From positions 104,941-168,940 of the forward strand of contig JAJVIN010000002.1 of assembly GCA_022071945.1 (NCBI GenBank): DNA of 64,000 nucleotides. Direction: 5' to 3'. A model generated the notes under the pieces. The model was not told the DNA's origin, searched no databases, and worked only from the letters and a program-made list of their open reading frames with translations. Below, one piece after another: positions 14,938 through 61,600 of the stretch (positions are counted from its first letter, which is position 1; each line of letters opens with the position of its first letter). Source of the DNA: Thermoanaerobaculia bacterium (lineage in GTDB: Bacteria; Acidobacteriota; Thermoanaerobaculia; UBA5066). Made by a program: the position numbers and the translations under genes.

Positions 14938-15214
14938 GGGGGCCGAATCTACGGAAAGTCGGGGCTTCGGGCAAATCGTGGCGGTGGAGGACGGAACGAG
15001 GGCACGCAGCGAACGGAGGCATGGTTCAAAGAGCCCCGAGGTGAGGAGCCAGGATGCCGAGACACTGTCTCATGTCATGGCGTCCCTTCCGCCAGGGTGC
15101 GCGGAACGGGTAGGATCGGACGAGCGAACGTCGGCGCTCTGGGCGAACCCGAGCTCGGACGGTTGTGGGGGAGGGGCAAATAGGACTTAGACTTGGGAAG
15201 GCGTCTGAGCCGGC

Positions 15215-32963: not shown

Positions 32964-32975
32964 AATTGGCGGGTC

Positions 32976-43618: not shown

Positions 43619-44389
43619 TCAGCGGTGCGAAGCGCGGGGCTCTCGCGTGGCGCCTTCGAGAGCGCGGCGGTAGCTGTCGGACGTCCAGGCTTCGGGGCTG
43701 AAGAAGTACACCCGCCTCCCGGCCCACGGGACCGGGATGAGCTCGCGCGTGGCCAGGCCGAGGCTCGTCCGGCATTCGGGGGACGAGAAGTCGTGCCCGG
43801 AGGCGATGCGCCGGCGAATCACCGGGCCATCCGGCCCCATGTCGAAGAGCATCGGGACGATCTCGTCGGCGGCCAGGCCCGAAAGCCAGTTGTCCCCGAG
43901 GCACCACGAAGCGAGTGCCGTGAAGGAGAGGAGAGTCGTGGACGGGAGCCTGTCGCGCAGCTCGGAGAGGAGGGCTCGAAAGAACGGACGCTCCGAGACG
44001 GTTGCGTCCGAGTCAATCTGGATGGCGCGTACTTTCGGGACCCGGCTCACCCGCAGGACTTCCTCCACGATGCGGGAGCGCTGTCCTGCGGTCAGAGCGG
44101 GATTGGCTCCGTGAGGTGTCTCGACCCGGGCGACGGCCATGAGAGGGGTGTCAGGGCTGGTCAGGAGTGGCTGGAGACGCGGAACCACGCTGAGGCTCTC
44201 GCTCTCGAGCTGGAGGGTGACCGCGAGAAACGCGACGCCCGTACCGGTTCCGCTCAGGAACCGGAGGTCTTCACGGCGCTCCCAGGCCCACAGGACGCGT
44301 TTCGGAAAGGAGTCATGCTGGCCCTGAGTCGTGGGACTCGATGCGGCCGGCAGGATGAAGGCCATCGTCGCGACGAACCAGCGGATCAC
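43619..44389 (-). CDS. Hypothetical secreted protein
   Basis: 256-aa ORF with a signal-like N-terminus MIRWFVATMAFILPAASS. No motif I can name. Confidence 0.5.
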   Translation of the reverse strand: MIRWFVATMAFILPAASSPTTQGQHDSFPKRVLWAWERREDLRFLSGTGTGVAFLAVTLQLESESLSVVPRLQPLLTSPDTPLMAVARVETPHGANPALTAGQRSRIVEEVLRVSRVPKVRAIQIDSDATVSERPFFRALLSELRDRLPSTTLLSFTALASWCLGDNWLSGLAADEIVPMLFDMGPDGPVIRRRIASGHDFSSPECRTSLGLATRELIPVPWAGRRVYFFSPEAWTSDSYRRALEGATREPRASHR

Positions 44390-44404: not shown

Positions 44405-45001
44405 CTATGGTTGCTGTTCTTTCGTCGTGTCGGGGACGTCCGGGATCCACCACCCGCCCATGTCGATCTCGATAGAGTCGAACGGCAGGGCGCGGACGGT
44501 CTTGTCTCCCTCGTGCAGACCGGCGATGACCCAGCGATTTCCGTCTCTTTCGAAGATCTCGAGGGTCTTTGCGATCGGGTCGATCAACCAGGCCCAGTTC
44601 ACCTCGTGCGCGAGGTAGATCGGGAGCTTTCGCATCCGGTCGATCCGGAGCGATCGAGGCGAGAGGATCTCGCAGACCCAGTCGGGAGCGAGCGTGAAGT
44701 AGGCCGTGGAAGGGAAGATGGGCATCCTTTCGCGGCGCCAGCCGGCCAGGTCGGGTACCAGGACGTCGTCGCCAAGGTGAAGCTCGGGTTCATCGAGAAT
44801 CCACCAGCCTCCGGGCCCGCCTCGACCGCGCTGGAACGGGCTGTTCAGATCCCCTCCGAGGACGGAACTCGCATACGCGTGCGGTGATGCTGGCCTCGGC
44901 GAGACGATCAGCTCCCCGTGAATCAGCTCTCCGACGACGATGTCGGGGAGAGCCAGGATGTCGGCATAGGTCGCTCGGCGGGTCACTGGGACGGCGGACA
45001 T
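44405..45001 (-). CDS. Uma2-family (DUF820) restriction-endonuclease-fold protein
   Basis: 198 aa from ATG 45001 (MSAVPVTRRATYADILALPD). GELIHGELIVSPRP, PDLAGW and PDWVCEILSP motifs are typical of Uma2. The upstream part of track ORF 44405..45265 is the nuoN-derived repeat, not this gene. Confidence 0.8.
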   Translation of the reverse strand: MSAVPVTRRATYADILALPDIVVGELIHGELIVSPRPASPHAYASSVLGGDLNSPFQRGRGGPGGWWILDEPELHLGDDVLVPDLAGWRRERMPIFPSTAYFTLAPDWVCEILSPRSLRIDRMRKLPIYLAHEVNWAWLIDPIAKTLEIFERDGNRWVIAGLHEGDKTVRALPFDSIEIDMGGWWIPDVPDTTKEQQP

Positions 45002-45056
45002 GCCTGAAGCGTAGCCATCTGGCGGCGGGGGAGCAAGCACGGCGATTCCCACGGAT

Positions 45057-45171
45057 GCACGAAGGGCGGGCACGAGGCCCGCCCTTCGGATTCTGATTCG
45101 ATGTGTTTCGGGCTTTCGCCGCACTGCCAGGGAGACCGCCGACGCCGCCGAGCGGGCGAGGCCGAAGAGGG
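45057..45171. repeat. Left copy of ~115-bp direct repeat: degenerate duplicate of the nuoN 3' end plus its downstream hairpin
   Basis: Manual ungapped alignment with 55512-55626 gives about 103 of 115 positions identical. The first 40 nt are identical, including hairpin GAAGGGCGGGC acgag GCCCGCCCTTC. The nuoN stop (cta at 55568-55570) reads ctt in this copy. Confidence 0.9.
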
Positions 45172-45640
45172 GAAGCCACCCGCCCAGGCCGGCCTGTCTA
45201 TTCGTCAAGGATGAGCGCCCGTGCCGCGAATTCGATGTCCTCGTGGACTCGCTCACGTGTTGCACAGAAGTCGATGAGTAAAGCCTGTGGTTTCACGAAG
45301 CGGCGAAGGGTGTGGGTGAAGGTTGCGTCGGCGCCGGATGCGCAGAAGTCCTCGAGCATCTGGGAGGCCAGGACGCAGAGGGTGGAGTCGCTCAACTTGA
45401 TGGACCAGTACCGGCCTGCCTACGGAGCTTCCGAGCATCCGCCACTTGACTGGAAGCCTTCTGCCTGGAAACTGGACGAGACCTTCCGGACGGAGGCGAA
45501 GCTGGCCTTGAGACGTCTGTATAGGCCGCGATAGCGGATCCCACCTTCCGCTCTTCTCGAGATGCTCCCTTGGCTTTTCTCTTCACCGACCCTATCTTTT
45601 CGCCAGGGATTGGAACGATCGAGATGAGGAGGCTCCCGTC

Positions 45641-48160
45641 ATGAGCCTCGCTCGGGGTACTCGGCTCGGCCCCTACGAGATCCTCACCCCGCTGGGCGCG
45701 GGAGGCATGGGCGAAGTCTTCCGTGCCCGTGACACACGCCTCGACCGCGATGTCGCGGTAAAGGTCCTCCCGGACGGCGTCGCCGGCGACCCGAAAGCGC
45801 TCTCGCGGTTCCAGGCGGAGGCCAAAGCCGTCGCAGCCCTCTCACATCCCAACATCCTCGCCATTTTCGAATTGGGGGAGGTGGAAGGCACAACGTTCGT
45901 CGTCACCGAACTTCTCGAAGGACAGACCCTGCGCTCCGCACTCGCACAGGGAGCTCTCCCGGTCAAACGGGTGCTCGACATCGCAATCTCCATCGCAACA
46001 GGACTGGCAGCGGCTCACGAGAAAGGCATCGTCCACCGCGACATCAAGCCAGAGAACGTCTTTCTCACCAAGGACGGCCAAGCCAAGGTCCTCGACTTCG
46101 GCCTTGCCCGTCACGAGACCACCCTCCGCTCGGACGAGGACGCCTCCACCATCTCCGTCCTCACCGACGTCGGCACCGTCCTCGGGACCGTTTCCTACAT
46201 GTCCCCGGAGCAGGCCCGCGCTCTTCCCGTAGACCACCGTTCCGACCAGTTCTCCCTCGGCATCGTCCTCTACGAGATGCTGTCAGGCAGGCGGCCCTTC
46301 CGAGGAACCTCCAAAGCCGAGACGTTGGCGTCGATCATCCGAGACGAGCCGGAACCCCTGGAGAAGGCCGCGCCTGGACTGGCGGGTCCGGTCTGCTGGC
46401 TCGTGGAAAGGCTGCTCTCGAAGGAAGCCTCCCGGCGGTACGAGTCCACGCATGACCTTGTGCAAGAGCTGATGACGTGCCGTGTGCACTTGTCGGAAGG
46501 CAAGGAGCGGCCACCCGCACCTGCAAAGGTACCGGAACGCATCCCCTGGAAGCTCATCTGGTTGGCGGCAGCCGTGTCGACAGCACTCGTGGCCGGCTTC
46601 ATAGCCGTTCGCAGCGGACACCGCCCGCCGAGTTCTGGCGGCTCCGTGAGCCTCCTGGCCCTGCCGTGCAAGGTATACGGAGCGCCCGAGTTCGTTTTTC
46701 TCACTGATGCGGTGCCGGGAACGATCTCGACGCTTCTCAGCGGCATCGAGGGGCTCGACACGAAGGTCCCGCCCAGCAGCATGGATGTCGAGAAGGTCAA
46801 GGGCGATCTGAGCCGGCTTGCCGATCTGTATCAGGTCACTCTCTTTGTCGTCACGTCGGTGACCGCCGCGCCCGGGAGATTTGCTCTCAACGTTCAGCTC
46901 GTCGATGCTCGGACGAGAAAAGTGACGTGGGGAAAGCAGTATGAGGGGCCGCGCGAGACCTACAACGACCTTGCGAGGCAGTCAGCAGAAGGGATCCGGC
47001 AGGCGGTAAAGCCCTCCGCCTCGCCGATAGGGGACACGGGCCAGTCATCCGAAGCCGAGCTTGCATTCCGGCAAGGGAAGTACCTGTCAAACCGCTACAA
47101 CAACTTTCACAAGCCCACCGATTTCGATGCCGCGATGGAAGCGTTCACACGAGCACTCGCAATTGATCCTTCCCAGGCAGTGGCGGCCGCGGAAGCCGGA
47201 TTCCTGTACATCCTGAGGTTCGAGGGAGAAGGGGATGTGAACCACGCGCGGAAACAAGCAGAATCGTGGGCGCGCCGCGCCCTCGGTATCGACCCGCGTT
47301 GCGGGCAGGGCTGGGCAACTCTGAGCGGGGTCGAGCTGTATGCGGCACACCCTGACCCCGAGAGGGGTGTCGACTACGCAGTCAAGGCTGTCGCCTTTTC
47401 GCCACGGGAAGCCTGGGTCCACCTGAGCATGGGCCTGTGGGCTGCGAACCCGGGATCGACTTCGCTCTTCATGGCCGCAGTTCAACGGTCGCACGAACTC
47501 AACCCCTTGTATCTGTATGCGACCAGCAACATGGCGTTTGCTTTGACCTTGCGCGGAAGGCCACAGGAGGCGCTTCCAGTCATCGATCAGGCTCTGCAGC
47601 TTGAACCCGGCTGGCCCTACGGTTTCGCAACGCGAAGCTATGCACTGCTGCAACTTGGCCGTCTGGAAGAAGCCGAGAAGAGCCTGAAAAGCGCGGAGGG
47701 TGAGTACGCGGCGGCTTCGCCGGTTCATGAATGGTGCCGCCAGATCCGGCTGGCAATCGCTGCCAGCCGGAAGGACACTTCCGCTTTCGAGACTCAAGCC
47801 TGCAAGACCCTGCCTCAGCTCTTCGATGGCAGCGCGGATGGCAGCACCGTGGCGAACGCCGCTCAGTGCCTGGCTCCCAAGCTGGCGCGGTTCGGATGGA
47901 CCGACGACGCGATGAAGATTCTCATCCGAAGCGTCGAGGTCGGCGTGGCCCCACCCTATGACTGGCTTCTCACCGATCCTGATATCCAGCTCCTGCGCAC
48001 AGATCCGCGCTTCGCGGTGGTGATGGCGGGATCCCGGGAGGGCGCCGCCATGGTTGCGACGGCTCTCGATCAGGCTCGTGTACGCGGTGAGTTGCCGAGG
48101 TACCTCGAAAGACCTCTTGAAGAACTGCACGAACTTCTGAAGAGGGATTCGAAGAACTGA
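45641..48160 (+). CDS. Ser/Thr protein kinase with TM segment, periplasmic domain and C-terminal TPR repeats
   Basis: 839 aa. GAGGMGEVFRA, HRDIKPEN, DFGLAR. TM LIWLAAAVSTALVAGFIAV. GAGGAGG RBS. More A/T in third codon positions than neighbouring genes, by eye. Confidence 0.88.
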   Translation: MSLARGTRLGPYEILTPLGAGGMGEVFRARDTRLDRDVAVKVLPDGVAGDPKALSRFQAEAKAVAALSHPNILAIFELGEVEGTTFVVTELLEGQTLRSALAQGALPVKRVLDIAISIATGLAAAHEKGIVHRDIKPENVFLTKDGQAKVLDFGLARHETTLRSDEDASTISVLTDVGTVLGTVSYMSPEQARALPVDHRSDQFSLGIVLYEMLSGRRPFRGTSKAETLASIIRDEPEPLEKAAPGLAGPVCWLVERLLSKEASRRYESTHDLVQELMTCRVHLSEGKERPPAPAKVPERIPWKLIWLAAAVSTALVAGFIAVRSGHRPPSSGGSVSLLALPCKVYGAPEFVFLTDAVPGTISTLLSGIEGLDTKVPPSSMDVEKVKGDLSRLADLYQVTLFVVTSVTAAPGRFALNVQLVDARTRKVTWGKQYEGPRETYNDLARQSAEGIRQAVKPSASPIGDTGQSSEAELAFRQGKYLSNRYNNFHKPTDFDAAMEAFTRALAIDPSQAVAAAEAGFLYILRFEGEGDVNHARKQAESWARRALGIDPRCGQGWATLSGVELYAAHPDPERGVDYAVKAVAFSPREAWVHLSMGLWAANPGSTSLFMAAVQRSHELNPLYLYATSNMAFALTLRGRPQEALPVIDQALQLEPGWPYGFATRSYALLQLGRLEEAEKSLKSAEGEYAAASPVHEWCRQIRLAIAASRKDTSAFETQACKTLPQLFDGSADGSTVANAAQCLAPKLARFGWTDDAMKILIRSVEVGVAPPYDWLLTDPDIQLLRTDPRFAVVMAGSREGAAMVATALDQARVRGELPRYLERPLEELHELLKRDSKN

Positions 48161-48395
48161 CGACAGTGGAGGCGCGAGCACCTCGAGGCGCGACCGGACC
48201 CGCCATGAGCCGTGCATGAGGACCGTTATCGCAAGAGCCTGGACTTCGTTCGCAACAACGATCTCCTGGACCCTGGCCGGCGGTGCTCGACCTGAAACCC
48301 GTGCCCGTCACTCTCGGCGCCCAGTCCCTGCCGGGCCTGGCCGTTCCCATGTAACCCATGGCTTCCGGGCCCCGTCGACAGGTCCCGCTGCCGAG

Positions 48396-49811
48396 TCAGT
48401 CGATCGCGAGCGGCAAGACCAGCCGGAACGTGCTCCCCTTGCCGGGAGCGCTCTCGAACGTGACGCGGCCTCCGTGGGCCTCGGCCGTCCACTTGACGAG
48501 AGCCAATCCGAGACCAGATCCCGGGACGTCTCGAGAACGGCTCGGGTCGATCCGATAGAAGCGTTCGAAGATCCTGGATTGATGTTCCGTGGCGATCCCA
48601 GGGCCTTCGTCGGAAACCGACAGGTGGGTCCACGGGCCTTCCTTCGCTGTTCGGACCGTGATGGTGGAACCTGCCGGGGAGTACTTGATGGCGTTGTCGA
48701 GGAGGTTCATCACCGCGCGGCGCAGGGCCCGCAGGTCCCCTCGGACCCAGGCGGCTTCCTCGAGAAAGGTCTCGACCTCTTGCCCCCGATCCTCCGCGAG
48801 GACCGAGAGGTTCTCCGCGACCTCGCCGGCGATTGATGCGAGGTCGACTCTCTCCCTGGCGAGCTGGGCCTGACCCGACTCGGCCCGGGCGAGGGCGAGG
48901 AGATCGTCGGACACCCTGGCGAGCCGGTCGACTTCCTCGAGCATGGTCTCGACCGTCTCCTTGTAGTCCTGAGCGGTCTTCCCGTTTCTGAGCCCAACCT
49001 CACCGACGGTCTTCAGTGTGGTCAGAGGAGTTCGCAGCTCGTGTGAGGCGTCCGCCGTGAAGCGGCGCAGGTGCTCGAACGAGGATTCCAGCCGGGCGAG
49101 GGTCCCGTTGAAGGCGTCGCGAACCTGATCGACCTCGGCGCTGGAGTCTGGGATGTCGAGACGTTCTCTCAGCCATTCAGGACCGATCCCGCGTGCCAGT
49201 CCCGCGAGACGGGACAGCGGGCCCAGAAAAAGGCCGGTGACGAACCACCCACCCAGGGCGCCCGCCGACAGCACCACGAGCGAAAGGACTGCGAGTTCGA
49301 TCCAGAGTTCTCGGATCTGCTGCCTCACACCAGCTTCCGACACGGCCGCGCGGACCAGGAAACGCTCGCTGCCAACCTGGAGGGACTCGGACATCACGCG
49401 GACGGGGCCCGAGGGGAGATGGACGGTCTCGGGAGTTCCGTGGCGAGGATGTGGCCGCCCCGTCAACGGGGCGGCCATGGTGCCCGCGGAGAGGAGGGGT
49501 GTCTCGCGATCGCCGAAGACCTCCACGTAGTGGCCGCCCCCTTCTTCCTCGGCGATCTGCTTGCCGAGGAACCCCCCGGCCCAGGCGGGCTCGCCCGCTT
49601 CATCGAGCACGAGGGCCCGGCTCGCCAGTTCGATGTCTTCGTGAACTCTTCGGTCCAGGTCGGCATTCGCGTGCGAGGAGAAAGAGAACCCCACCGCAAC
49701 CGAGTAGGCCACCAGACAGGACCCGAGGAGCGCCACGTACCAGACAGTGATCCTCGTTCGGAGGCTCCGCCGGCGATGGAGGGGCGGAGGACCCTTCGCG
49801 AAACCGGTCAT
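48396..49811 (-). CDS. Sensor histidine kinase, heavy-metal (CusS/CopS/CzcS-like) subfamily
   Basis: 471 aa. N-terminal SLRTRITVWYVALL, two TM segments flanking a periplasmic loop, HAMP, H-box ADASHELRTPLTTL, and G boxes DEGPGI, GSGLGLALVK. Confidence 0.85.
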   Translation of the reverse strand: MTGFAKGPPPLHRRRSLRTRITVWYVALLGSCLVAYSVAVGFSFSSHANADLDRRVHEDIELASRALVLDEAGEPAWAGGFLGKQIAEEEGGGHYVEVFGDRETPLLSAGTMAAPLTGRPHPRHGTPETVHLPSGPVRVMSESLQVGSERFLVRAAVSEAGVRQQIRELWIELAVLSLVVLSAGALGGWFVTGLFLGPLSRLAGLARGIGPEWLRERLDIPDSSAEVDQVRDAFNGTLARLESSFEHLRRFTADASHELRTPLTTLKTVGEVGLRNGKTAQDYKETVETMLEEVDRLARVSDDLLALARAESGQAQLARERVDLASIAGEVAENLSVLAEDRGQEVETFLEEAAWVRGDLRALRRAVMNLLDNAIKYSPAGSTITVRTAKEGPWTHLSVSDEGPGIATEHQSRIFERFYRIDPSRSRDVPGSGLGLALVKWTAEAHGGRVTFESAPGKGSTFRLVLPLAID

Positions 49812-50524
49812 TCGTCCGTGTCGCGTGCGGTGAATCCGATCCCGCGGATGGTGTGAATGAGGCGGGTGGAGTGACCCTGGTCGACCTTGCGGCGGATGCG
49901 TCCGATGTGGACGTCGATGACGTTGTCGAGGGGCGTGCTGCGCTCCGTCTCTTTCCAGACGTCGCGGGCGATCATTTCGCGTGAGACCAGAGAGCCCCGA
50001 TGGCGGACGAGGTATTCGAGGAGAGCGAACTCACGGGAGGTCAGCTCGATTGGCGTGCCACCTCGCGAGACGGAGCGGCTCGGGATGTCGAGCACGAGAT
50101 CGGCGAGCGTGAGCCGCGTGAGCTGGTCGCCACGGCCCCGGCGCAGCAGAGCGCGCACGCGGGCGAGCAACTCGGGAAAGGCGAAGGGCTTCACGAGGTA
50201 GTCGTCAGCCCCCGCATCCAGCCCCGCGACACGGTCCTCTACGGCATCGCGGGCCGTGAGGACGAGAACGGGAGCCAGGACGCTCTTCTGACGGAGGGCT
50301 CTGAGGATCTCGAGACCGTCCCTTCCCGGGAGCATCCAGTCCAGGATGATGGCGTCAAAGAGACCGGTCGAGGCCTCGAAGAAGCCCGCCTCGCCGCTCA
50401 TGGCCACCGTCACCGCGTACCCCTCGGCCTCGAAGCCTGCCTGCAGGGCGCGGGCCACGCGTCCCTCGTCCTCGACGACGAGCAGGGACGGGGCGTCAAG
50501 ACCGGTCATTGGTTTCACGTGCAA
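49808..50524 (-). CDS. OmpR/PhoB-family response regulator, heavy-metal (CusR-like) subfamily
   Basis: LLVVEDEGRVARAL, AIILDWMLPGRDG, VLTARDAVEDRVAGLDAGADDYLVKPFAFPELLARV, and a winged-helix C-terminus. Stop overlaps the kinase start. Alternative start at 50509. Confidence 0.88.
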   Translation of the reverse strand: MHVKPMTGLDAPSLLVVEDEGRVARALQAGFEAEGYAVTVAMSGEAGFFEASTGLFDAIILDWMLPGRDGLEILRALRQKSVLAPVLVLTARDAVEDRVAGLDAGADDYLVKPFAFPELLARVRALLRRGRGDQLTRLTLADLVLDIPSRSVSRGGTPIELTSREFALLEYLVRHRGSLVSREMIARDVWKETERSTPLDNVIDVHIGRIRRKVDQGHSTRLIHTIRGIGFTARDTDE

Positions 50525-50565
50525 GAGTCATTCTAGCGAGACCTCCTTGCCCCGGGGGCACGAAC

Positions 50566-50593
50566 GGGAAGGGGGCCGCGAGGCCCCCTTTTC
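50566..50593 (-). terminator. Hairpin between the cytochrome gene and the response-regulator gene
   Basis: GGGGGCC gcga GGCCCCC, flanked by TTTTCGAAAA on the plus strand and TTCCCGTT on the minus strand. Confidence 0.5.
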
Positions 50594-50619
50594 GAAAACC
50601 AGAGTTTGAGGGGCGGGTT

Positions 50620-52464
50620 CTAGTCGTCGGTCGTGTGGGCCGAGACCGGCTCGGGAGCGTCCGCCGGCTTGGAACTGGAGAGCCGCTTCTGGGTCATCGA
50701 ACCGGCCTTGCTCGTGTCCCACCACTTGCCGCCCGGTCCGAAGTACGTCTTCAGGAAGTTGGCGTTGGAGACGTCGTGCGGCTGGTTCCAGACGGCGATG
50801 TCCGGGTCGAGGCCGAGGCCGGCGGAATTGACCTTCGTGCCGTGACACGAGACGGCGCAGGAGTTCGGCATGCCGCCCTTGTCCTGGTAGGTCAAGGTCT
50901 TCTCCGGTGCGATGACCTCGAACGTGTGGGAAGCGATATCCCAGTTCTCGGCCGTGGATGCGGTCTTCGGCATGTGGCAGTCGATGCAGCGCGAGAGACC
51001 CATCATCCGCTCCGGGGCGTACGGATGGTGCGAGTGCTCGGCGATGACCTTCCCGATCTTGTCGACGTTCTTGTCGTATTCGGCGACGTCTTCCTTCTTG
51101 ATCGACTCGAAGGGTCCGTGAGTCGCGTGGCAGGCGAGGCAGAGGGTGTTGTTGTCCTTCTTGGTCGGGATCGTGAGGCTGCCGTCGACGATCTTCTCCA
51201 CGAGCTGGTACGGGTTCGCCGTCTTCTTGTGCGGGTCGTGACACTCGGTGCACTTCACCGGGTGGAACTGGAAGGCGGGCTTGCCGGAGGCGTCGAAGTC
51301 GAAGGACTGCTGGTGGTGCTGCTTGGAGGTCTGACCGTCCGGCCAGCGGCCCGCCGCGTCGGTGTAGTAGGTCGAGAGAGCATCGCTCTTGCCGGGGTAC
51401 CAGGAGGTGCCGGTGTCGTCCTTGTAGGGCCACTCGTGGACCTTGCCCGGTACGGAGAAGACGCGGACGTGGCACTGGGCGCAGACTTCATTCGCCTTCT
51501 TCGTGTCCATCTTGGCGGGGTTGGCGATCTTGGCCGGATCGCCATTGCCGAAGATGTGGTTGGAGCCGGGGCCGTGGCAGGCTTCGCAGCCGATGTTCAG
51601 AATATCGAAGACGCCATCGCCGTCGAAGTCGAAGTAGTTCGGGTCGTCCGCCTTGTAGAGCGAGGCGACGTACGGACGGTAGAGATACTCACCGGCCGCG
51701 GTCTTCTCCATCTTGCGGATGCCGGTGGTGTGGCAGCCGATGCACTTCTTCGACTGTGTGCTCCCGTTCTTGGCCGCGAGGTCGCCCGCTGCGACCGCCT
51801 TGGTGAAGAGCGGAGCCTTCGACGTGGCGTCGTACCAGTTGTTGGGGTTGTAGAGAACGTAGCGAGCCCGGGCCTCGTTGAACTGGATCGGCGAGGTGTA
51901 TGCATCCTTCGAGAAGGTGCCGTCGGCGAGCGGGACCTTCAGGACGTACCGCTGCTTCCACGGGCCGTTGCCACCCTGCGTGTACAGGACCGGCATCTTC
52001 AGTTCGCCAATGCTCACGTAGTACGTGCCGCTCTCCACGGAGAGCTTCGGGGCGTTGGGCTTGTACGGGTCGAAGACCGAACTGATCGTGTTGAAGTCGA
52101 GCGCCTGGGCGAAGTCGTCGACACCGTTCTTGTCGTAGTCGTTCACGACGCCGAGGCCGGCCTTCATCGCGTACTGCGTCATCGGCCTCCGGTAGGCCTT
52201 GGCGTGCTTGGTATCGCGCCAGTGTGAGACACCGGGATGGCAGGCGATGCAATACTCCGAGCCGACGTACACTCCGGCCTCCATTTCGGCGTTCGTGTAG
52301 TAGCCCGAGAGTGTCTTCGCCAATGTACCGTTCTTCAGCACGCGCTGGGCCGTCAGCTCCACGGGTTGACCGTGGCTTGGCTCCAGAAGCGGCTTGTCCG
52401 CGGCCAGAGCTGGGATCGCGAGGGGGACGACGATGGCGAGAGCGAATCTCCGTAGATGTTTCAT
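50620..52464 (-). CDS. Secreted multiheme c-type cytochrome (7 CXXCH + 1 CXXXCH), not MtrC-like
   Basis: 614 aa from ATG 52464 (MKHLRRFALAIVVPLAIPALA), with GGAGAAGGAG upstream. Motifs CIACH, CIGCH, CEACH, CAQCH, CTECH, CLACH, CIDCH and CAVSCH. The track ORF N-terminal extension was rejected. Confidence 0.85.
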   Translation of the reverse strand: MKHLRRFALAIVVPLAIPALAADKPLLEPSHGQPVELTAQRVLKNGTLAKTLSGYYTNAEMEAGVYVGSEYCIACHPGVSHWRDTKHAKAYRRPMTQYAMKAGLGVVNDYDKNGVDDFAQALDFNTISSVFDPYKPNAPKLSVESGTYYVSIGELKMPVLYTQGGNGPWKQRYVLKVPLADGTFSKDAYTSPIQFNEARARYVLYNPNNWYDATSKAPLFTKAVAAGDLAAKNGSTQSKKCIGCHTTGIRKMEKTAAGEYLYRPYVASLYKADDPNYFDFDGDGVFDILNIGCEACHGPGSNHIFGNGDPAKIANPAKMDTKKANEVCAQCHVRVFSVPGKVHEWPYKDDTGTSWYPGKSDALSTYYTDAAGRWPDGQTSKQHHQQSFDFDASGKPAFQFHPVKCTECHDPHKKTANPYQLVEKIVDGSLTIPTKKDNNTLCLACHATHGPFESIKKEDVAEYDKNVDKIGKVIAEHSHHPYAPERMMGLSRCIDCHMPKTASTAENWDIASHTFEVIAPEKTLTYQDKGGMPNSCAVSCHGTKVNSAGLGLDPDIAVWNQPHDVSNANFLKTYFGPGGKWWDTSKAGSMTQKRLSSSKPADAPEPVSAHTTDD

Positions 52465-52510
52465 GCGCACTCTCCTTCTCCTTTCCTTGACCGTTGGTGG
52501 TCCGGGTGTT

Positions 52511-53398
52511 TCATTCGTCGAAGAGCTTCGGGTCGTGGTTGGACCCGTGGATGGCGATGTGGCAGGTCGTGCAGTTGCGGTAGCGGGGTTTCGTCTGGTC
52601 GTGTGACGAGCCGAGGCTCGTGTGGCACTCGAGGCACAGAGAAGAGATGGATCTGCGGGTGAGCATCCGCGGGTTGGTCGAGCCATGCGGGACGTGACAC
52701 GTCACGCACGCTCCCCCTGTCTCGCGTGGGGCGTGCGGAAAGACGAACGGTCCCGCCAGGTCGGTGTGGCAGTCGATGCAGGCCCCGCCGTTTCGAGCAT
52801 CGAGCAGCCGTCCCTGCCGGCCCTTGCCGTGGACCGAGTGGCAGTTCTTGCACTCGAAGGGGCGGCGGCCGTCTCGGTGGGCGTAGGGCAAGAGGGTCGC
52901 CGACTTCTGCTCCATGTGACACGAGCCGCAGAGGTCGTGCGAGCCCGCGATGAGCAGGGGAGTGGATCCAGGCTTCTTGTGGCCAGAGGCGTGGCACGAG
53001 AGGCATGCGACCTGACCGCGCGCATGTGCCGGTGACGAGAGCGAGACGTTGCCGGACGCGGCGTGGCAGGAGACACAGGCGGCCACTCCCGGGACTCGCC
53101 TGATGTTCTCCTTGGCCGGGCTCTCGAGGTGGGCGGCGGCGTTTCCGTGGCAGGCCACGCAGGAGTTCTGGAACAGAGACTCCGACGAACGCTTCATGGC
53201 CAGGCCGTGGGGACCGGCTGCCGTCCCGGTCACCTGCTCCTCGTGGCACGCGGCGCAGGTTTCGGCGGTCTGGGGAGTCTCTTCGGCGATGCCGGGAGAC
53301 GAGGTCCCCGTTCCGCGCTCGCCTTGCTCGCGCGGGCCCGGGGAGAGGAGAAGACCCAGGAGGAGGGTGATGACAGCGCGCATGATCAGAAGTCCCAT
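52511..53398 (-). CDS. Periplasmic decaheme c-type cytochrome, DmsE/MtrA family (second copy)
   Basis: 295 aa with ten CXXCH motifs. The C-terminus NCTTCHIAIHGSNHDPKL parallels NCTTCHTAIHGSNRSPKL of the first copy. Alternative start ATG 53383 (MRAVITLLL). Confidence 0.88.
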   Translation of the reverse strand: MGLLIMRAVITLLLGLLLSPGPREQGERGTGTSSPGIAEETPQTAETCAACHEEQVTGTAAGPHGLAMKRSSESLFQNSCVACHGNAAAHLESPAKENIRRVPGVAACVSCHAASGNVSLSSPAHARGQVACLSCHASGHKKPGSTPLLIAGSHDLCGSCHMEQKSATLLPYAHRDGRRPFECKNCHSVHGKGRQGRLLDARNGGACIDCHTDLAGPFVFPHAPRETGGACVTCHVPHGSTNPRMLTRRSISSLCLECHTSLGSSHDQTKPRYRNCTTCHIAIHGSNHDPKLFDE

Positions 53399-55311
53399 CT
53401 CACGAGGAGCCCGTAGCGCGACACCTCGTAGTCATCTCTGTCCGCGCGAGACTCGTCGTACGAGTAGTGCTGGACGAAGGCGGAGAGTTCCGTCTTCGCG
53501 GACGCCCGAACGCTCACTCGCCCGTTCACCGTCCAGGATGTCAGCGGCCACGTGTCGCCGTCGTCCTCGACGCGAGAGCCGTCGGCCGCGATCCGGACCA
53601 GGCCGAGCGTGACGTGTCCGGCGGCTGTGAAGGTGACAGCGGAGAGGTCGTAGATCGAGGTGCCCGGGATGCCGCCAGACGGCGCCGGGAGGAGGATCCC
53701 GGTCTCTGAGTGGAAGTTGCTGATGTTCACCCCGGCGCTGATTCCGTGGAGGGCGGACGGGTGCTCCCAGCCGGCCGTGAGGCCGCCGGACTTGGACTGC
53801 CTGTCGAGAGCGGCCTCGGCGGGCGGGTTGGACCCTTCCTCCCAGCGTCCGTGTACGGAAGCCGAGAATCCCCCTGACAGAGTGAGCTGAAGGCGGCCGG
53901 TCAGGCGGTCAACTGTTTCGGGTTCCGTCCGGAAGACGAAGCCGTCGAAGGCTCCGTGTTCGTACTCGGCCGAGAGCCGGAATCCCGATGGAAGGTTGAG
54001 CGAGGCTCCAGCAACCGTGCCTCGGGTGTCGCGCTCGGCGTCATGAGCGGGCTCGGCCTGCGTGGTCTTCCAGGAAACATCCCGCTGGGCCGCGAATCCG
54101 CCTGCCCAGATCGCGAACGTCCTGGCTTCCCAGGCGATCTCGATTCGGCCTCCCTGGTCCTTCGTGTCGAACATCCCGGCTTCGTCGATCGGAAGGACGA
54201 TGTCGTTCACATGTCCCGTGGGGCTCGTCAGCCGCAGCAGCCGCTGTCCCAGAAGAGTGGAGTCGGTCCGGGAGTCGTTCAGGTTGCCGAAGAGGCGGAG
54301 CTTCAGGTTCTGGGTGATCGCGAATCCCATCCTGAGGTTGGCGGCCCAGGTGTCCATCGTCGCGGACCCAGCCGTCTGGTCGAGGTTCTCGATCCGGCCG
54401 ATCTGTCCCCCCGAGAGGTCGAACACCTTCGAGCCATCGCCGGTGGTGTCGAGATCCGGCCTGCTGAAAAGGAGGCTGCCCGTGACCTCGAAGCGCGTCG
54501 AGGTGTACGAGGCCATGGCTCGCGTCGTCGGGATGACCTGCTTGTCCTCTCGTGTGCTCGTTGCGCCGGTCAGAGGGTTGACGAGGCTGCCGGGTCCGCC
54601 GGGAGACCAGCGGTCCTTGCGAGATGCCCAGGCAAGTGCCTGCTCGATGGAGCCGTGAAAGCTTCCGAGGCCCTTGGTTTCGAGCCGGACCGCTCCTTCG
54701 AGCTGATTTCGATCGAACGCGACCGCGAGCGGATAGATCTGGTTGAGGCCGAGGAAAGGCTGGATCGCGTTCCCGGTTCGCTCGAGGTACCGCGCCCGAA
54801 GCGAAAGCCGGAGCTTCTCGAGACCTTCGTAGACCGCCCCGGCCTTCCAGCGGCTGATGGACCAGGTGTCCGTCCTCGCCGACAGATCGGACTCCTGGAT
54901 CTCGAAGGCGGAGTCACGACGGTCGTATCCGAGATCGATTCGCCAGCAAGGGGCCGGGAGAAACCTGAGATGAGCCTTCTGATAGGGCTCGGATCCGCCG
55001 AACCCCCACGCTTCGGCTGAGAGAAGCTCGCTCCCGTCCTTGGCCGCCAGTTTCAGGGAGAGGTCCTCCAGAGAAACGCCCTCGCCGAGGTAGTGCTGGG
55101 TCTTGAAAGACCCGAGACTTCCCGAGTCGCTCCTCCAGACGTATCCCGCCGTGATCGACCCGGTGAGGCCTTCCGCCGCCATTTCAGGAGCCAGGACGAG
55201 GCCCGTCGTCAGCGCGGCAGTCGCGAGCCACCTGAGGGGCGCCCCGAGGCGCCGCGATCGTCCTGCCTGACCATCGGCCCCTCGTTGCGGTCGCCGCCGC
55301 TCCCGTCTCAT
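53386..55311 (-). CDS. Outer-membrane beta-barrel porin, MtrB/PioB-like (second copy)
   Basis: 641 aa from ATG 55311 (MRRERRR), preceded by AGGAGG. Signal-like LRWLATAALTTGLVLAPEMAA. Strand-rich sequence ending in the C-terminal motif LLVRWDF. Immediately upstream of the decaheme gene. Confidence 0.72.
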   Translation of the reverse strand: MRRERRRPQRGADGQAGRSRRLGAPLRWLATAALTTGLVLAPEMAAEGLTGSITAGYVWRSDSGSLGSFKTQHYLGEGVSLEDLSLKLAAKDGSELLSAEAWGFGGSEPYQKAHLRFLPAPCWRIDLGYDRRDSAFEIQESDLSARTDTWSISRWKAGAVYEGLEKLRLSLRARYLERTGNAIQPFLGLNQIYPLAVAFDRNQLEGAVRLETKGLGSFHGSIEQALAWASRKDRWSPGGPGSLVNPLTGATSTREDKQVIPTTRAMASYTSTRFEVTGSLLFSRPDLDTTGDGSKVFDLSGGQIGRIENLDQTAGSATMDTWAANLRMGFAITQNLKLRLFGNLNDSRTDSTLLGQRLLRLTSPTGHVNDIVLPIDEAGMFDTKDQGGRIEIAWEARTFAIWAGGFAAQRDVSWKTTQAEPAHDAERDTRGTVAGASLNLPSGFRLSAEYEHGAFDGFVFRTEPETVDRLTGRLQLTLSGGFSASVHGRWEEGSNPPAEAALDRQSKSGGLTAGWEHPSALHGISAGVNISNFHSETGILLPAPSGGIPGTSIYDLSAVTFTAAGHVTLGLVRIAADGSRVEDDGDTWPLTSWTVNGRVSVRASAKTELSAFVQHYSYDESRADRDDYEVSRYGLLVRWDF

Positions 55312-55511
55312 CACGACACCTCCTGGCGTCTCGAAACCGCATGGCGAACGCCCGGATTTCGAGTCCGTCAAATGGTATCGACGGGCTCGGCGGTGGGATC
55401 TGAAGACTTTCTGAAGATCGCTTCAGGTCTCCGCAGCGGAGGCGGGAGCCGCACGACGCACCGGCACCCCCCGAGTTGAACCTCACGGTTCGCTGGCCCA
55501 TCCCCCAGGTC

Positions 55512-55626
55512 GCACGAAGGGCGGGCACGAGGCCCGCCCTTCGGATTCTGACTCGAAGTGAATGGGGCTATCGCAACGCTGCCAGGGAGACCGCCGACGC
55601 CGCCGCGCGGGCGAGGTCGAGGAGGG
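55512..55626. repeat. Right copy of ~115-bp direct repeat: the functional nuoN 3' end (last ~19 codons) plus its terminator hairpin
   Basis: See the left copy. The hairpin is at 55516-55542 and the nuoN stop at 55568-55570. Confidence 0.9.
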
Positions 55627-57034
55627 CCTTCGGCGCGATTCCGAGGATCAGCATTCCGGCCATGACCAGGAGGTACGACGCTCCGGAAAGCACGTCTTCC
55701 TCGGGGAGGTTCACCTCTCGGCCCGGCTCCTTCATCCACAGAAAGTAGACGACGCGCAGGTAGTACCCGACGGAGATCAGGCTTCCGAAGACGCCCACGA
55801 TCGTCAGCCACACGAGCCCCTGGTCGACGGCTGCCTTGAAGACGACGAGCTTGCCGATGAACCCGACAGTCGGGGGCAGGCCCGTCAACGAGATCATCGC
55901 GATCGTCAGCACCCACGCGGGGCCCGGGCGCTTCTTCCCGAGGCCAGAGAGGTCCGCGAGCGTGTGCGGCCCTTTTTCGCCGTTGGAGAGAACGCCGACC
56001 GCGAGGAACGCGGCGATGTTGGTGATCAGGTAGCCCGCCAGGAAGAACAGGAGCCCCTCGAAGGCGTCCTTCGTGAAGGTGGCGAGACCAATCGCGGCGT
56101 ACCCCATCTGCGCGATGCCCGAGTAGGCGAGCATGCGCTTCAGGTCACGCTGGGCGAGCGCCACGACGTTGCCGTAGAGGATCGAGATCGTTGCCAGGAT
56201 CGCGAGAAGGGGAGTCCAGGGTTCGCCCAGCCCAGCGGGGGCGAGAGCCTGGAGAACCCGCACCATGACGATCGCGGCCGCGGCCTTGGGGGCCGTCGAG
56301 AGGAACGCGATCGCTGGCGTCGTCATTCCCTGGTAGACGTCCGGGGCCCAGGAGTGGAAGGGGACCAGCGAGAGCTTGAATCCGAGCGCCGCGATGACGG
56401 CCAGAAGGCCGAGCGCGAGGAGCGGATCCAGGAGAGGCGAGTGGGTCCCAGAGAGTTCCGCCAGCTTCGCGAGTTGCGTCGAGCCCATCCGGCCGTAGAT
56501 GGTGGCGATCCCGAAGAGCAGGAAAGCCGAAGAGAACGCTCCCATCAGGAAGTACTTCATCCCCGCCTCGACGGCTTCGGGGAGCTCCCGATACCAGGCC
56601 GCCAGGACGTAGAGACCGAACGACATCAGCTCGAGCCCGAGGAAGACGATGAGCAGATCGTTCCCCTTGACCATGAGCATCAGGCCGGACGCGGACCAGA
56701 GAAGCAGGCCGAAGAACTCACCGTGCCCCTTGTTGTCCCGCTGAAGGAGTGCGGTGCCGCCCAGAATGGCGAGAGCCAGGGCCATGAGTGTCAGCAGGTC
56801 GACGAAGCGGGTCAGGTCGGAGGCCTCGATGGCGCCGGCGAAGAACTTGCCCGGCGTGTAGTGGCTCGAGAAGTTCGCGATGACGACGCCGGCCAGGGCG
56901 ATATACGGAAACGAGGGACGGGAGAACTTCGCGAAGGCGTCGAGCAGGACGAGAAGGAGCCCCGTCGCAACGAGGATCAGCTCCGGAGCCACGGCCCAGA
57001 AATCCGCGCTCGTGAGTTGGATGGAGATGGGCAT
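55568..57034 (-). CDS. nuoN: NADH-quinone oxidoreductase subunit N
   Basis: 488 aa polytopic antiporter-like subunit. Last gene of the nuo run. Confidence 0.9.
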   Translation of the reverse strand: MPISIQLTSADFWAVAPELILVATGLLLVLLDAFAKFSRPSFPYIALAGVVIANFSSHYTPGKFFAGAIEASDLTRFVDLLTLMALALAILGGTALLQRDNKGHGEFFGLLLWSASGLMLMVKGNDLLIVFLGLELMSFGLYVLAAWYRELPEAVEAGMKYFLMGAFSSAFLLFGIATIYGRMGSTQLAKLAELSGTHSPLLDPLLALGLLAVIAALGFKLSLVPFHSWAPDVYQGMTTPAIAFLSTAPKAAAAIVMVRVLQALAPAGLGEPWTPLLAILATISILYGNVVALAQRDLKRMLAYSGIAQMGYAAIGLATFTKDAFEGLLFFLAGYLITNIAAFLAVGVLSNGEKGPHTLADLSGLGKKRPGPAWVLTIAMISLTGLPPTVGFIGKLVVFKAAVDQGLVWLTIVGVFGSLISVGYYLRVVYFLWMKEPGREVNLPEEDVLSGASYLLVMAGMLILGIAPKALLDLARAAASAVSLAALR

Positions 57035-57059
57035 CTCTACAGACTCTCCTCTCTTCGTC

Positions 57060-58598
57060 TCACGGGTGCAAGCGCGCCGCCTCGAGCACGAACGTGATCG
57101 ACGGCTTCAGGAGATCCAGAACGGGGCCGGGGTAGACACCCAGGATCACGATGCCCGCGACCAGGGGCATCGCTCCGAGAAACTCCCAGATGTTGATGTC
57201 CGTCAGTCCGTTGTTGACGGGCTGCGTGACCGGTCCCCAGAAGACCTTCTGGATCAGCGTGAGCATGTAGATGGCCGAAAGGATCATCCCGGTGGCCGCG
57301 ATGGCGCACCAGACGACGTTGACCTTGAAGACTCCGGCGAGGATCAGGAACTCCCCGATGAAGCCGTTCAGACCGGGAAGGCCGATCGAGCCGAGGGTCG
57401 CGATGACGAAGAGCGTCGTCGTCACCGGCACCTGCCGCGCGACGCCGCCGTAGTCCGCCATCTCTCTCGTGTGCCGGCGGTCGTAGAGAACGCCGACGAG
57501 CATGAAGAGAAGTCCCGTCGTCAGACCGTGGCCGATCATCTGGTAGATCGCCCCGGCCGCCGCCTCGGCGTTGCCAGCGAAGATCCCGAGCACGACGAGC
57601 GCAAGGTGGCTGACCGAGGAGTAGGCCACCAGTTTCTTCATGTCCTTCTGCGCCGCGGCCACCCAGGCCCCGTAGACGACGCCGACGAGCGCGAGCCCCA
57701 CGATCAGCGGGGTGAACTTCATCGTCGCGTTCGGGAAGAGCGGAAGCGCAAAGCGCATCAGACCGTACGTTCCGAGCTTCAGGAGAACACCCGCCAGGAT
57801 GACGGATCCGCCCGTCGGCGCCTCGACGTGGGCGTCCGGGAGCCAGGTGTGGAGCGGCCACAGCGGGACTTTCACGAGGAAGGCGAGCGCGAATGCCCCG
57901 AAGACCAGGGCTTCCATCCCGGGAGTGAGCGCCCACGCATTCGACTTCGCCGCGTTCATCCAGTCGAGAAGCGAGAACGAGAGGATTCCCGTCGTCTTCT
58001 GGTGCTGGATCGCCAGGAAGAGGATCGCGATGAACATCAGGAGCGAGCCGACGAGCGTGAAGAGGAAGAACTTCATCGCCGCGTAGATCCGCCGCTTGCC
58101 GCCCCAGATGCCGATGATGAAGTACATCGGGACGAGCATCACTTCCCAGAAAACGTAGAAGAGGATGGTGTCGAGAGCGACGAGGCTTCCGAGCATCCCC
58201 GTCTCGAGGATGAGGAAGGAGACGACGTAGCCCTTGAACCGCTGGAGGTCCTGACCCGCGGCCACGAGGAGGACGCAGAACGTCAGGAGGGTTGTCAAAA
58301 CGACGAGGGAGAGCGCGAAGCCGTCGATTCCGAGCTGATAGCGGATCCCGAGGCTCTCCATCCACGGGTAGTCCACCCGGAACCCCGAGATCCCCGGGGT
58401 GGCCGGATCGAATCGAAGGGCGATCTTCGCGGAGACGAGAAGAGTCGCCCCCGAGAAGAGGAGCCCCATGGCCCGGATCGCCTGTTTCGCCTCCGCCGGG
58501 ACGGCGAGGAGAAGAAGCGCTCCGAGCGACGGCAGGAACAGGAGCGTCGTCAGAATGTCGGCGCCCAGAAGGTCCAGCGAAGTAATCGAGTCAAGCAT
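57060..58598 (-). CDS. nuoM: NADH-quinone oxidoreductase subunit M
   Basis: 512 aa antiporter-like subunit. Position between nuoL and nuoN. Confidence 0.9.
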   Translation of the reverse strand: MLDSITSLDLLGADILTTLLFLPSLGALLLLAVPAEAKQAIRAMGLLFSGATLLVSAKIALRFDPATPGISGFRVDYPWMESLGIRYQLGIDGFALSLVVLTTLLTFCVLLVAAGQDLQRFKGYVVSFLILETGMLGSLVALDTILFYVFWEVMLVPMYFIIGIWGGKRRIYAAMKFFLFTLVGSLLMFIAILFLAIQHQKTTGILSFSLLDWMNAAKSNAWALTPGMEALVFGAFALAFLVKVPLWPLHTWLPDAHVEAPTGGSVILAGVLLKLGTYGLMRFALPLFPNATMKFTPLIVGLALVGVVYGAWVAAAQKDMKKLVAYSSVSHLALVVLGIFAGNAEAAAGAIYQMIGHGLTTGLLFMLVGVLYDRRHTREMADYGGVARQVPVTTTLFVIATLGSIGLPGLNGFIGEFLILAGVFKVNVVWCAIAATGMILSAIYMLTLIQKVFWGPVTQPVNNGLTDINIWEFLGAMPLVAGIVILGVYPGPVLDLLKPSITFVLEAARLHP

Positions 58599-58604
58599 CG
58601 TCGG

Positions 58605-60737: not shown

Positions 60738-60747
60738 GTCTGCCCCC

Positions 60748-61071
60748 CTACCACTTCAAGAGGTTGATCTTGTCGACGTCGACCGTGCTTCGGGCACGGA
60801 AGAGCGCGACGAACATCGCGAGACCGATCGAGGCTTCGGCGGCGGCGATGGCGATGACGAAAAAGACGATCACCTGGCCCGAGATGTCCCCCCGCATCCG
60901 CGCGTAGGTCAGCAGGAGCAGGTTGGCCGCGTTCATCATCAGCTCGATTGAGAGGAAGATCGAAAGAGCGTTCCGCTTCAGGAGCGCACCGGCCATCCCG
61001 ATGAAGAAGAGCAACGTTCCGACGGTCAGGTACGCCGCGGGCGCCACGGCCATCGGTTCCACAGCGTTCAC
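60748..61071 (-). CDS. nuoK: NADH-quinone oxidoreductase subunit K
   Basis: 107 aa with three TM helices. Overlaps the nuoJ stop. Confidence 0.9.
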   Translation of the reverse strand: MNAVEPMAVAPAAYLTVGTLLFFIGMAGALLKRNALSIFLSIELMMNAANLLLLTYARMRGDISGQVIVFFVIAIAAAEASIGLAMFVALFRARSTVDVDKINLLKW

Positions 61072-61586
61072 TCGAACCTCCGCTTCGACAGGATGAGGGC
61101 GCCGACCGCGGCGAGCAGGAGCAGGACTGACAGCGCCTCGAAGGCCAAGAGGTAGTCCGTGAACAGGACCTTCCCGAGGAGCGGGATCTCGTCCTTGGCC
61201 GGGATCAGGAACGGTCCGTTCCCGACCGGCACTGGCGGGTTTCCGGCCCGGAGCGTCAGTCCCGTCACCAGCCCTCCCAGCCCGAGGACGGCGAGGATTC
61301 CGAGATAGAAGTGGATCTTCCTCGTCTCCTTGTCCGCGGCCTCCTGCTCGAGGTTGAGGAGCATGATGACGAAGAGGAAGAGGACGAGGATCGCGCCCGC
61401 GTAGACGATCACCTGGAGCGCAGCGATGAAGGGCGCGGCCAGGAGCACCGAGAGGATCGCGAGCCCGAAGAAGGTCACGACGAGGGACAGGACGCTCTTG
61501 ACCGGCTTTCTCTGAAAGAGCATCACCAGGGAGAAGACGATCGCGAGCGCCGAGGCAAGGGCGAAGACGATGGTTTCGGTGTTCAT
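61068..61586 (-). CDS. nuoJ: NADH-quinone oxidoreductase subunit J
   Basis: 172 aa from ATG 61586 (MNTETIVFALASALAIVF), with GGGAGGA upstream. The longer track start (61730) was rejected because it would overlap nuoH. Confidence 0.88.
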   Translation of the reverse strand: MNTETIVFALASALAIVFSLVMLFQRKPVKSVLSLVVTFFGLAILSVLLAAPFIAALQVIVYAGAILVLFLFVIMLLNLEQEAADKETRKIHFYLGILAVLGLGGLVTGLTLRAGNPPVPVGNGPFLIPAKDEIPLLGKVLFTDYLLAFEALSVLLLLAAVGALILSKRRFE

Positions 61587-61600
61587 GCCCGTCCTCCCTC

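Follow-up and report, generated by a model that had tools for sequence, protein, structure and literature searches.

A 10.3-kb segment with a predicted porin-cytochrome module between two copies of the nuoN gene end in a Thermoanaerobaculia bacterium

Integration of the element e14 and of phage 21 into the Escherichia coli gene icd was reportedly described by Hill et al. in 1989. Both integrate into icd and leave icdC, a pseudo-3′ end of the gene (PMC13626634). We report here on a locus of a comparable build, in a 64,000-nucleotide stretch of the Thermoanaerobaculia bacterium assembly GCA_022071945.1 (contig JAJVIN010000002.1, positions 104,941 to 168,940 of the forward strand). This whole stretch is called the window, and its own numbering is used throughout. 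Between the terminator hairpin of nuoN, the gene for subunit N of complex I, and a gene for an Uma2-family endonuclease lies an inserted block of 10,328 bp (45172-55499), flanked by two copies of the nuoN end. As in the e14/icd case, a housekeeping gene has its intact 3′ end on one side and a homologous C-terminal fragment, a pseudogene, on the other; the repeats, each more than 100 nt long, match imperfectly, and by recombining they would re-create a single gene end. There are differences too: e14, a prophage that encodes its own integrase, excises upon SOS induction, whereas the window insert has no recombinase or phage genes, is of native composition and is fixed across the species. The window repeat also differs in that it includes the terminator hairpin, and its remnant is already stopless.

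Homology-facilitated illegitimate recombination and Campbell-type single-crossover insertion are known from natural transformation and plasmid integration. Both are mentioned in PMC6382021. As in these two mechanisms, a short homologous anchor and host recombination would suffice at the nuoN end. They account for an insert without integrase, for the signature of a related donor and for the duplicated anchor or target, as well as for an odd joint and a variable duplicate length at two other nuoN loci (contigs L171 and L166, see below). They do not predict near-coincident 5′ boundaries in two lineages, and we infer their action here with no donor configuration observed. With moderate confidence, we favour the reading that the segment is an old, fixed insertion of 10,328 bp, made independently of an integrase behind nuoN in the ancestor of this Thermoanaerobaculia species.

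The closest described counterparts of the cargo are MtrCAB (the Shewanella Mtr complex, PDB 6R2Q) and PioAB: as there, a large plug-less beta-barrel stands next to a decahaem cytochrome of ∼300 aa, here a DmsE/MtrA-like one, with a third multihaem cytochrome in the operon. By analogy, the case may be described as a gene-end-duplicating insertion of the e14/icd kind that bears an Mtr-like conduit.

The duplicated nuoN end and the empty site

A repeat search and a direct count both gave a gap-free direct repeat of 127 nt, 45045-45171 against 55500-55626, with 110/127 identical positions. The preliminary description of this stretch, made from the letters alone, had aligned 45057-45171 with 55512-55626 without gaps and counted 103/115 identities, a figure that we obtained too; the repeat simply extends further. 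The first 40 nt of that alignment (45057-45096 and 55512-55551) form a core with zero mismatches, as had been noticed, and no such core match was found in 100 shuffled sequences (0/100). Inside it lies a GC-rich hairpin, at 45060-45088 and 55515-55543, with a 5-nt loop and a stem of 12 bp rather than the 11 bp first counted. Mismatches between the left and right copies fall outside the core: 0/40 core positions differ, against 12/75 in the adjacent stretch on the nuoN side (Fisher p = 0.008); when the 24 stem positions are taken as constrained, the remaining 16 non-stem core positions give p ∼0.06. The bias of the differences among codon positions (8/4/1) is not significant (p ∼0.06 by our own estimate).

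The right copy, T_R (55500-55626, minus strand), is the functional end of nuoN, as had been proposed. It holds the last 19 nuoN codons, the TAG stop, a spacer of 18 to ∼25 nt, the hairpin (55515-55543, minus strand), which is the putative nuoN terminator, and ∼12-15 nt past it. No U-tract was found at this hairpin on the nuoN strand. The left copy, T_L (45045-45171, minus strand), is a truncated and decayed nuoN 3′ remnant, LFGLARSAASAVSLAVRRK, with a stop changed from TAG to AAG and a hairpin (45060-45088, minus strand) of the same sequence as that of T_R. It ends 59 nt from the Uma2 start codon at 45001, in agreement with the first account of a copy with a mutated stop just upstream of Uma2. 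Besides the stop, its coding part shows 6 more differences to T_R, all non-synonymous (6/6). The motif LLDLAR, conserved in the NuoN C-termini of relatives, is kept in T_R and broken by a D to G change in T_L, and together with the missing stop this makes T_L the non-functional copy.

Among strains, the spacer of T_R (55544-55570) is hypervariable, with ∼10 differences between the window and GCA_023151375.1 despite ∼98% genome identity; unlike it, the spacer of T_L is nearly invariant. The positions compared were 11409-11527 of L175 and L176, and about 2076-2139 of L177.

Two copies of a hairpin-bearing sequence could also mimic an island if they were an assembly artefact, or members of a terminator or REP-type repeat dispersed at many loci, a possibility raised at first. 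Short-read unitigs do break exactly at the 40-nt core, and an exact look-up of the NuoN protein returned only unitigs ending at the repeat. The 64 kb of the window contain two copies of the hairpin motif, two of the 127-mer and no more, so that this is not a dispersed terminator repeat; a many-copy family is not borne out either, as both window copies are attached to 57 nt of nuoN coding sequence. Among the 185 loci fetched, the hairpin was present only at orthologous sites. Contigs of at least 5 strains, from NCBI metagenome-assembled genomes (MAGs) and from Logan assemblies, span nuoN-T_R-cargo and cargo-T_L-Uma2. Since both junctions recur in assemblies made independently from strains at 94-100% identity, the arrangement is not an assembly artefact, and we find either explanation of this kind hardly credible.

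By its NuoN, the window belongs to the class Thermoanaerobaculia (Acidobacteriota). All relatives at 94-100% identity have the segment between both repeats; they are GCA_023151375.1 (∼98% at the nucleotide level), GCA_020845555.1 (96.2%) and several Logan assemblies (94-100%). Among the samples in which the species occurs are SRR32934033, SRR28201750 and SRR10609169. The arrangement, being common to all relatives at 94% or more, is older than the diversification of this clade. One Logan contig (L168, 10,470 nt) exactly spans the distance between the two hairpins, both of its ends falling inside the hairpin sequence; a circle or a chromosomal repeat would both yield that. Beyond the clade, the best NuoN matches in species-representative genomes and metagenomes of the Joint Genome Institute (JGI) are 68-70% identical. 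No empty site could be obtained from these nearest representative matches, as their synteny already ends at nuoN.

An empty site was found on a 1,845-nt contig (L170) of a related species, which carries the closest Uma2 homologue outside the species (87% identical). Its order is nuoN 3′ end, one hairpin, Uma2 promoter flank and gene, then a DUF3142-like gene, with nothing between. The nuoN 3′ end of L170 is 84% identical at the nucleotide level to window 55969-55512, and its Uma2 flank and gene are 77% identical to window 45169-43677. Relative to L170, the window has gained 10,328 bases (45172-55499) and a second copy of the 127-nt target, and T_L is continuous with the Uma2 promoter flank that comes after the hairpin in L170. 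An insertion at the nuoN 3′ end, as first supposed, is thus supported by this single contig.

The two copies resemble each other far more than either resembles L170. T_L and T_R agree at 19/19 third-codon positions and in the hairpin loop; against L170, each differs at 13-14 of 57 coding nucleotides, and the L170 loop is different. T_L and T_R are therefore sisters, both distant from L170, and the second copy came from the window's own lineage, or from one very close to it, once L170 had branched off. L170 in turn represents the ancestral state, unless gene conversion is at work. The idea that T_L is a foreign attP arm is ruled out by its sharing every third-codon position and the loop with T_R.

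Which gene follows nuoN varies with distance: a GT2 glycosyltransferase gene at 76% NuoN identity (L184 11567-12661; the 76% relative is GCA_016277765.1), and rex at 65-70%. This means that the nuoN end is a general synteny breakpoint. The rex call, just downstream of nuoN in L001-L004 and L088, is that of a Rex-type redox-sensing repressor made by eye only; no rex was seen in the window.

Mobile-element signs and nuoN-end duplications elsewhere

Pfam and NCBIfam models were scanned against all seven open reading frames (ORFs) of the insert and the six frames of its 470-nt inner left end (45172-45640). No integrase, excisionase or transposase, nor any remnant of one, was found in these sequences. 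Terminal inverted repeats of at least 10 nt are lacking at the inner ends of the insert, no tRNA was found in the region, and an Rfam scan gave only two sub-threshold chance matches. The 127-mer and the 25-nt arm had no match in viral contigs, plasmids and phages, nor had the barrel protein in plasmids. The hallmarks of a transposon or insertion sequence are lacking as well: there is no transposase, there are no inverted repeats, and the duplication is of 127 nt rather than short.

Composition gives a similar picture. The Ser/Thr kinase gene of the insert had been described as visibly lower in GC. Its GC (62.8%) and its GC at third codon positions (GC3, 0.73) are indeed the lowest of the window, but the effect is small, being close to several other genes. 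The lowest GC3 values, those of this kinase and the two-component genes (0.73-0.75), are inside the window range. Over the insert, GC3 runs from 0.73 to 0.85, against 0.72-0.92 for the window, and the tetranucleotide distance along the window stays within ±1.4 standard deviations. Neither of these profiles, nor that of GC, shows the compositional break that would be looked for in a foreign island, and by GC3 and tetranucleotides the composition of the insert is native.

These results bear on the origin first put forward for the segment, site-specific integration of the classic type known from islands that target tRNA genes. On this view, the nuoN 3′ end and hairpin would have been the attB of a tyrosine or serine recombinase, with a copy of it as attP, and the integrase would later have been lost or have acted in trans. 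Imperfect direct repeats that copy a gene 3′ end around an identical 40-nt palindromic core are what such an event would leave, an empty site exists in L170, and the e14/icd/icdC case is a precedent (PMC13626634). The 10.3 kb, however, hold no recombinase gene or fragment and no excisionase, the cargo consists wholly of chromosomal-type genes of native composition, and both arms derive, as sister sequences, from the nuoN of the host itself.

Duplications of the nuoN end at other loci add to this comparison; they are, in three lineages, the most unusual element of the case. In JGI sample 3300049437, one contig (L185) carries a true nuoN end (90% amino acid identity) with its hairpin, and two others (L171 and L172) carry, upstream of the Uma2 orthologue, a nuoN-end copy of ∼130 nt which is 86% identical to L185 and has no stop. 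The 5′ boundary of the L171 remnant lies 7 nt from that of the window remnant, and the 3′ boundaries nearly coincide. Inward of both ends, the sequences bear no relation to the window cargo, and the nuoN-end copies of the window and of L171/L185 group by genome, not by position. A second lineage with a near-identical duplicated segment and different cargo ends is as expected at an integration hot spot, and favours an integrase. The L171 remnant, on the other hand, is joined directly to a 175-nt, 94% identical duplicate (941-1115, against 1743-1917) of the resident Uma2 3′ end and 39 nt beyond. An attP × attB exchange would not give such a joint, which is of the sort typical of illegitimate or unequal recombination. 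Ahead of the Uma2-end duplicate, L171 also has ∼8 copies of a 15-nt tandem repeat, GGCATTCTCACGGCC (830-940), and an ORF with Ig-like repeats.

A self-match screen of the nuoN gene end covered 133 nuoN loci. In a distant acidobacterium (L166) it revealed a 221-nt, 93% identical duplication of the nuoN end (6351-6571 and 7343-7563) around an insert of 771 nt, which encodes a ParE toxin (PF05016) and a putative small antitoxin partner; no recombinase was found in these 771 nt. A duplication of this other length, around a toxin-antitoxin pair only, also fits an integrase poorly, and we hold integrase-mediated arrival of the window segment to be rather unlikely. A Terriglobia MAG (L058 11689-12021) has a tandem array of ∼139-nt units, 92-98% identical, which starts at the very end of nuoN.

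Another way to account for both lineages is that the duplication and an insert were already present in the ancestor of the clade made up of the window, L170 and L171, with gene conversion between the copies, later replacement of the cargo, and L170 as a secondary deletion. Repeats of 115-130 nt with a perfect 40-nt block can support a RecA-mediated deletion that yields the L170 structure, the grouping of copies by genome is what concerted evolution would give, and in two lineages the 5′ boundaries lie within 7 nt of each other. Conversion, however, would homogenise whole tracts, yet 12/75 flanking positions differ beside the identical core. Both inner ends of the insert are wholly different in the window and in L171/L185, which calls for two cargo replacements, and the L171 remnant has its own distinctive Uma2-3′ joint. 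We consider this history improbable.

The L171/L185 and L166 cases speak for host recombination as the route of the insertion in the window. The nuoN 3′ end and terminator would have served as the homologous segment. In one possible route, a one-ended homologous joint combined with an illegitimate one would have brought in DNA of a close relative having the cassette behind nuoN; in another, a circle carrying the same 127 nt would have inserted by a Campbell-type single crossover. Either would produce two 127-nt copies, of which the nuoN-proximal one would stay gene end and terminator and the Uma2-side one would become the truncated, stopless remnant. A dedicated integrase would neither have been involved nor survive, and the present segment would be fixed and immobile, save for possible RecA-mediated deletion between the repeats.

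Several points weigh against this preferred reading of an old insertion by host recombination. The empty site is one 1,845-nt short-read contig from one sample (SRR21101784), and a graph mis-join through the shared hairpin is possible, although in the window's own species, where both copies exist, the assembler that produced L170 stops at the repeat instead of passing across. L185 and L171 may not belong to one genome. No genome of the donor type, with nuoN and then the cassette but without the remnant, was observed. The 40-nt core without differences is what an integrase crossover core would look like, and stem conservation explains most of it. Finally, 5′ boundaries 7 nt apart and near-coincident 3′ boundaries in two lineages fit a defined att site better than random illegitimate joints. 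These close 5′ boundaries and the perfect core keep the att-site model alive. On balance, classic site-specific integration is less likely than integrase-independent recombination. Of the island as first described, a genuine insertion with a porin-cytochrome cargo remains; a recent mobile island does not, given that the segment is old and fixed across the clade of at least 94% identity.

Taken more widely, the nuoN 3′ end and its terminator could be a recurrent, integrase-independent insertion hot spot in Acidobacteriota, with independent events in at least three lineages and 127-221 nt duplicated. We regard this generalisation as unlikely. Candidate drivers of such a hot spot would be the strong hairpin, through breakage or template switching, and the Uma2 nuclease encoded beside the site in this clade, through cutting.

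The predicted electron conduit and its regulators

The seven ORFs of the insert encode a barrel, two cytochromes, a response regulator, a histidine kinase, a Ser/Thr kinase and an 86-aa product, which matches the gene list given at first (kinase, Cus-type two-component system, barrel, decahaem and 8-site cytochrome). The model and family matches below support a cargo of the MtrAB type, a predicted porin-cytochrome module with its own regulators.

The first gene behind T_R (53386-55311, minus strand) encodes an MtrB-like outer-membrane beta-barrel of 641 aa with 0 haem sites. No Pfam family was found for this protein, and with its mechanical TTG start it had no exact-protein record. Its AlphaFold model (pLDDT 86.4, pTM 0.77) is all beta and forms a large barrel, for which the top-scoring structure in the PDB is MtrB, from the Mtr complex of Shewanella (6R2Q_B, TM 0.65/0.65, E 5e-14); TonB-dependent receptor barrels reach a TM of only ∼0.4. 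Sequence identity to MtrB is only 13%, a departure from MtrCAB. The next gene (52511-53398, minus strand) encodes a periplasmic decahaem cytochrome of the DmsE/MtrA-like kind (295 aa, 10 CXXCH). It aligns end to end with TIGR03508, the DmsE/MtrA model, and scores 160.8 bits, below the family cut-off of 192.2, which again sets it apart from MtrCAB. The order barrel, decahaem, then cytochrome is also unlike that of MtrCAB.

The third gene of the trio (50620-52464, minus strand) encodes a multihaem cytochrome of 614 aa with a signal peptide. Unlike the corresponding component of MtrCAB, it has 8 haem sites (7 CXXCH and 1 CXXXCH) and no lipobox cysteine, and its match to the MtrC-MtrF domain is a faint one on record only. 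This protein is presumed to be the outer component of the conduit, and may be a different kind of outer partner than a surface decahaem lipoprotein of the MtrC/OmcA type.

A further difference from MtrCAB is that the cassette carries its own Cus-type sensor-regulator pair, both members of which were called by family-model scan. The response regulator (49808-50524, minus strand) is of the OmpR family and probably of the CusR/CopR/CzcR heavy-metal type (TIGR01387, 234.9 bits, below the cut-off of 279.2), and the sensor histidine kinase (48396-49811, minus strand) is of the CusS/CopS/CzcS heavy-metal type (TIGR01386, 293.2 bits, just above the cut-off of 292.55). Upstream of the barrel gene, at 55400-55416 (minus strand), a direct repeat CTTCAG-N5-CTTCAG with an 11-bp period is a candidate operator, and from its sequence a candidate binding site of the OmpR-family regulator of the cassette. 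The same motif stands upstream of a 49%-identical barrel homologue in L169. The cargo would most likely act as a regulated trans-outer-membrane electron conduit, with the decahaem cytochrome held in the MtrB-like barrel and an outer multihaem cytochrome, turned on by the adjacent sensor-regulator pair via the CTTCAG-N5-CTTCAG site.

The trio of barrel, decahaem and ∼600-aa cytochrome recurs in other genomic contexts. Behind dnaE in L169, the order is barrel, decahaem, cytochrome, regulator, and the operator-like motif is shared; in one Thermoanaerobaculia MAG, the three-gene core adjoins fur. As a self-contained cassette, the module is found across the class at various places in the chromosome. 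Its arrival here as one unit is in line with this, which also upholds the earlier suggestion that an electron transfer module had been acquired as such, since the three genes travel together elsewhere, once with the response regulator and the operator-like motif. In the literature, nothing specific to porin-cytochrome clusters of Thermoanaerobaculia was found.

Two more genes lie towards the left end of the insert, both on the plus strand. One (45641-48160, family-model scan) encodes a Ser/Thr protein kinase of 839 aa with C-terminal TPR repeats. Ser/Thr kinase genes number five in the window, the others being at 15209-16996, 32937-35807, 37368-39950 and 39972-42926, and the five share 33-39% mutual identity in the kinase domain. 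In several relatives whose NuoN is 42-47% identical, a kinase is encoded within 1-3 kb downstream of nuoN. Rfam gives a weak match to the c-di-GMP-I-GGC riboswitch at 48329-48395 (minus strand), where the insert's two kinase genes converge; at 21.5 bits against a gathering score of 59, it is probably due to chance. The other gene, at the inner left end, is an orphan ORF of 86 aa (45274-45534). Between strains it shows 9 non-synonymous against 1 synonymous codon differences, and no homologue was found outside the species, the sole non-self match (P0261) being the translation of a junk repeat. To judge from these substitutions, the ORF is probably non-functional or decaying.

The resident flanks and the meaning of the insertion

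The gene nuoN itself (55568-57034, minus strand, 488 aa, PF00361) is the last gene of a nuo operon that extends, on the minus strand, as far as the end of the window. In the orthologous operon of L175 (426-11467, corresponding to window about 55568-64000 and beyond) the order is A-E-F-G-H-J-K-L-M-N. No nuoB, C, D or I was found in this cluster, hence these subunits must be encoded elsewhere.

On the other side of the insert, the resident flank consists of the Uma2-family (PD-(D/E)XK) endonuclease gene (44405-45001, minus strand), which directly follows the nuoN hairpin in the empty-site relative, and a DUF3142-like gene (43619-44389, minus strand). The conserved order Uma2-DUF3142-(AhpC)-STK (STK, Ser/Thr kinase) is also found in L170 and L171. 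A 71%-identical Uma2 homologue (P0026) was rejected as an orthologue, being a paralogue in an unrelated context.

On the minus strand, the frame of the nuoN remnant is open through the hairpin and in frame with Uma2 (44405-45265), giving a mechanical ORF of 286 aa from a GTG at 45265. The Uma2 N-terminus conserved in L170 and L171 argues for the ATG at 45001 as the real start rather than this GTG, and an exact-protein record confirms the start at 45001. The interval between hairpin and Uma2 (window 45002-45056; L170 453-511) holds a conserved stretch that looks promoter-like by eye, CTTGCTCCCCCG...GATGGCTACGCTTCA, followed 2-3 nt later by the ATG. No sigma-70 site was found in this interval by consensus scan. 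The short distance suggests that the Uma2 transcript may be near-leaderless.

Far from the insert, at 2668-2816, the window has a 17-nt tandem repeat, CGCCACGGACTTCCGTG, in 8.8 copies with 93% matches, each unit of which is an imperfect palindrome.

The comparison with the empty site documents how an uncultured Thermoanaerobaculia lineage gained, as one block behind complex I, what is predicted to be a self-regulated MtrAB-like conduit, and it helps the annotation of iron- and metal-respiring potential in this class. The CTTCAG-N5-CTTCAG site and the Cus-type sensor provide concrete regulatory hypotheses. A direct repeat of a gene 3′ end is, by itself, no proof of an integrase-borne island, and caution is warranted in island prediction; the recurring nuoN-end duplications suggest that scans for gene-end duplicates could serve as a screen for integrase-less insertions. 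No recognisable mobile-element genes are needed for respiratory modules to move from one chromosomal site to another. If the hot spot were true, bacteria without dedicated mobile-element machinery would have a general route for placing chromosomal cassettes behind essential operons.

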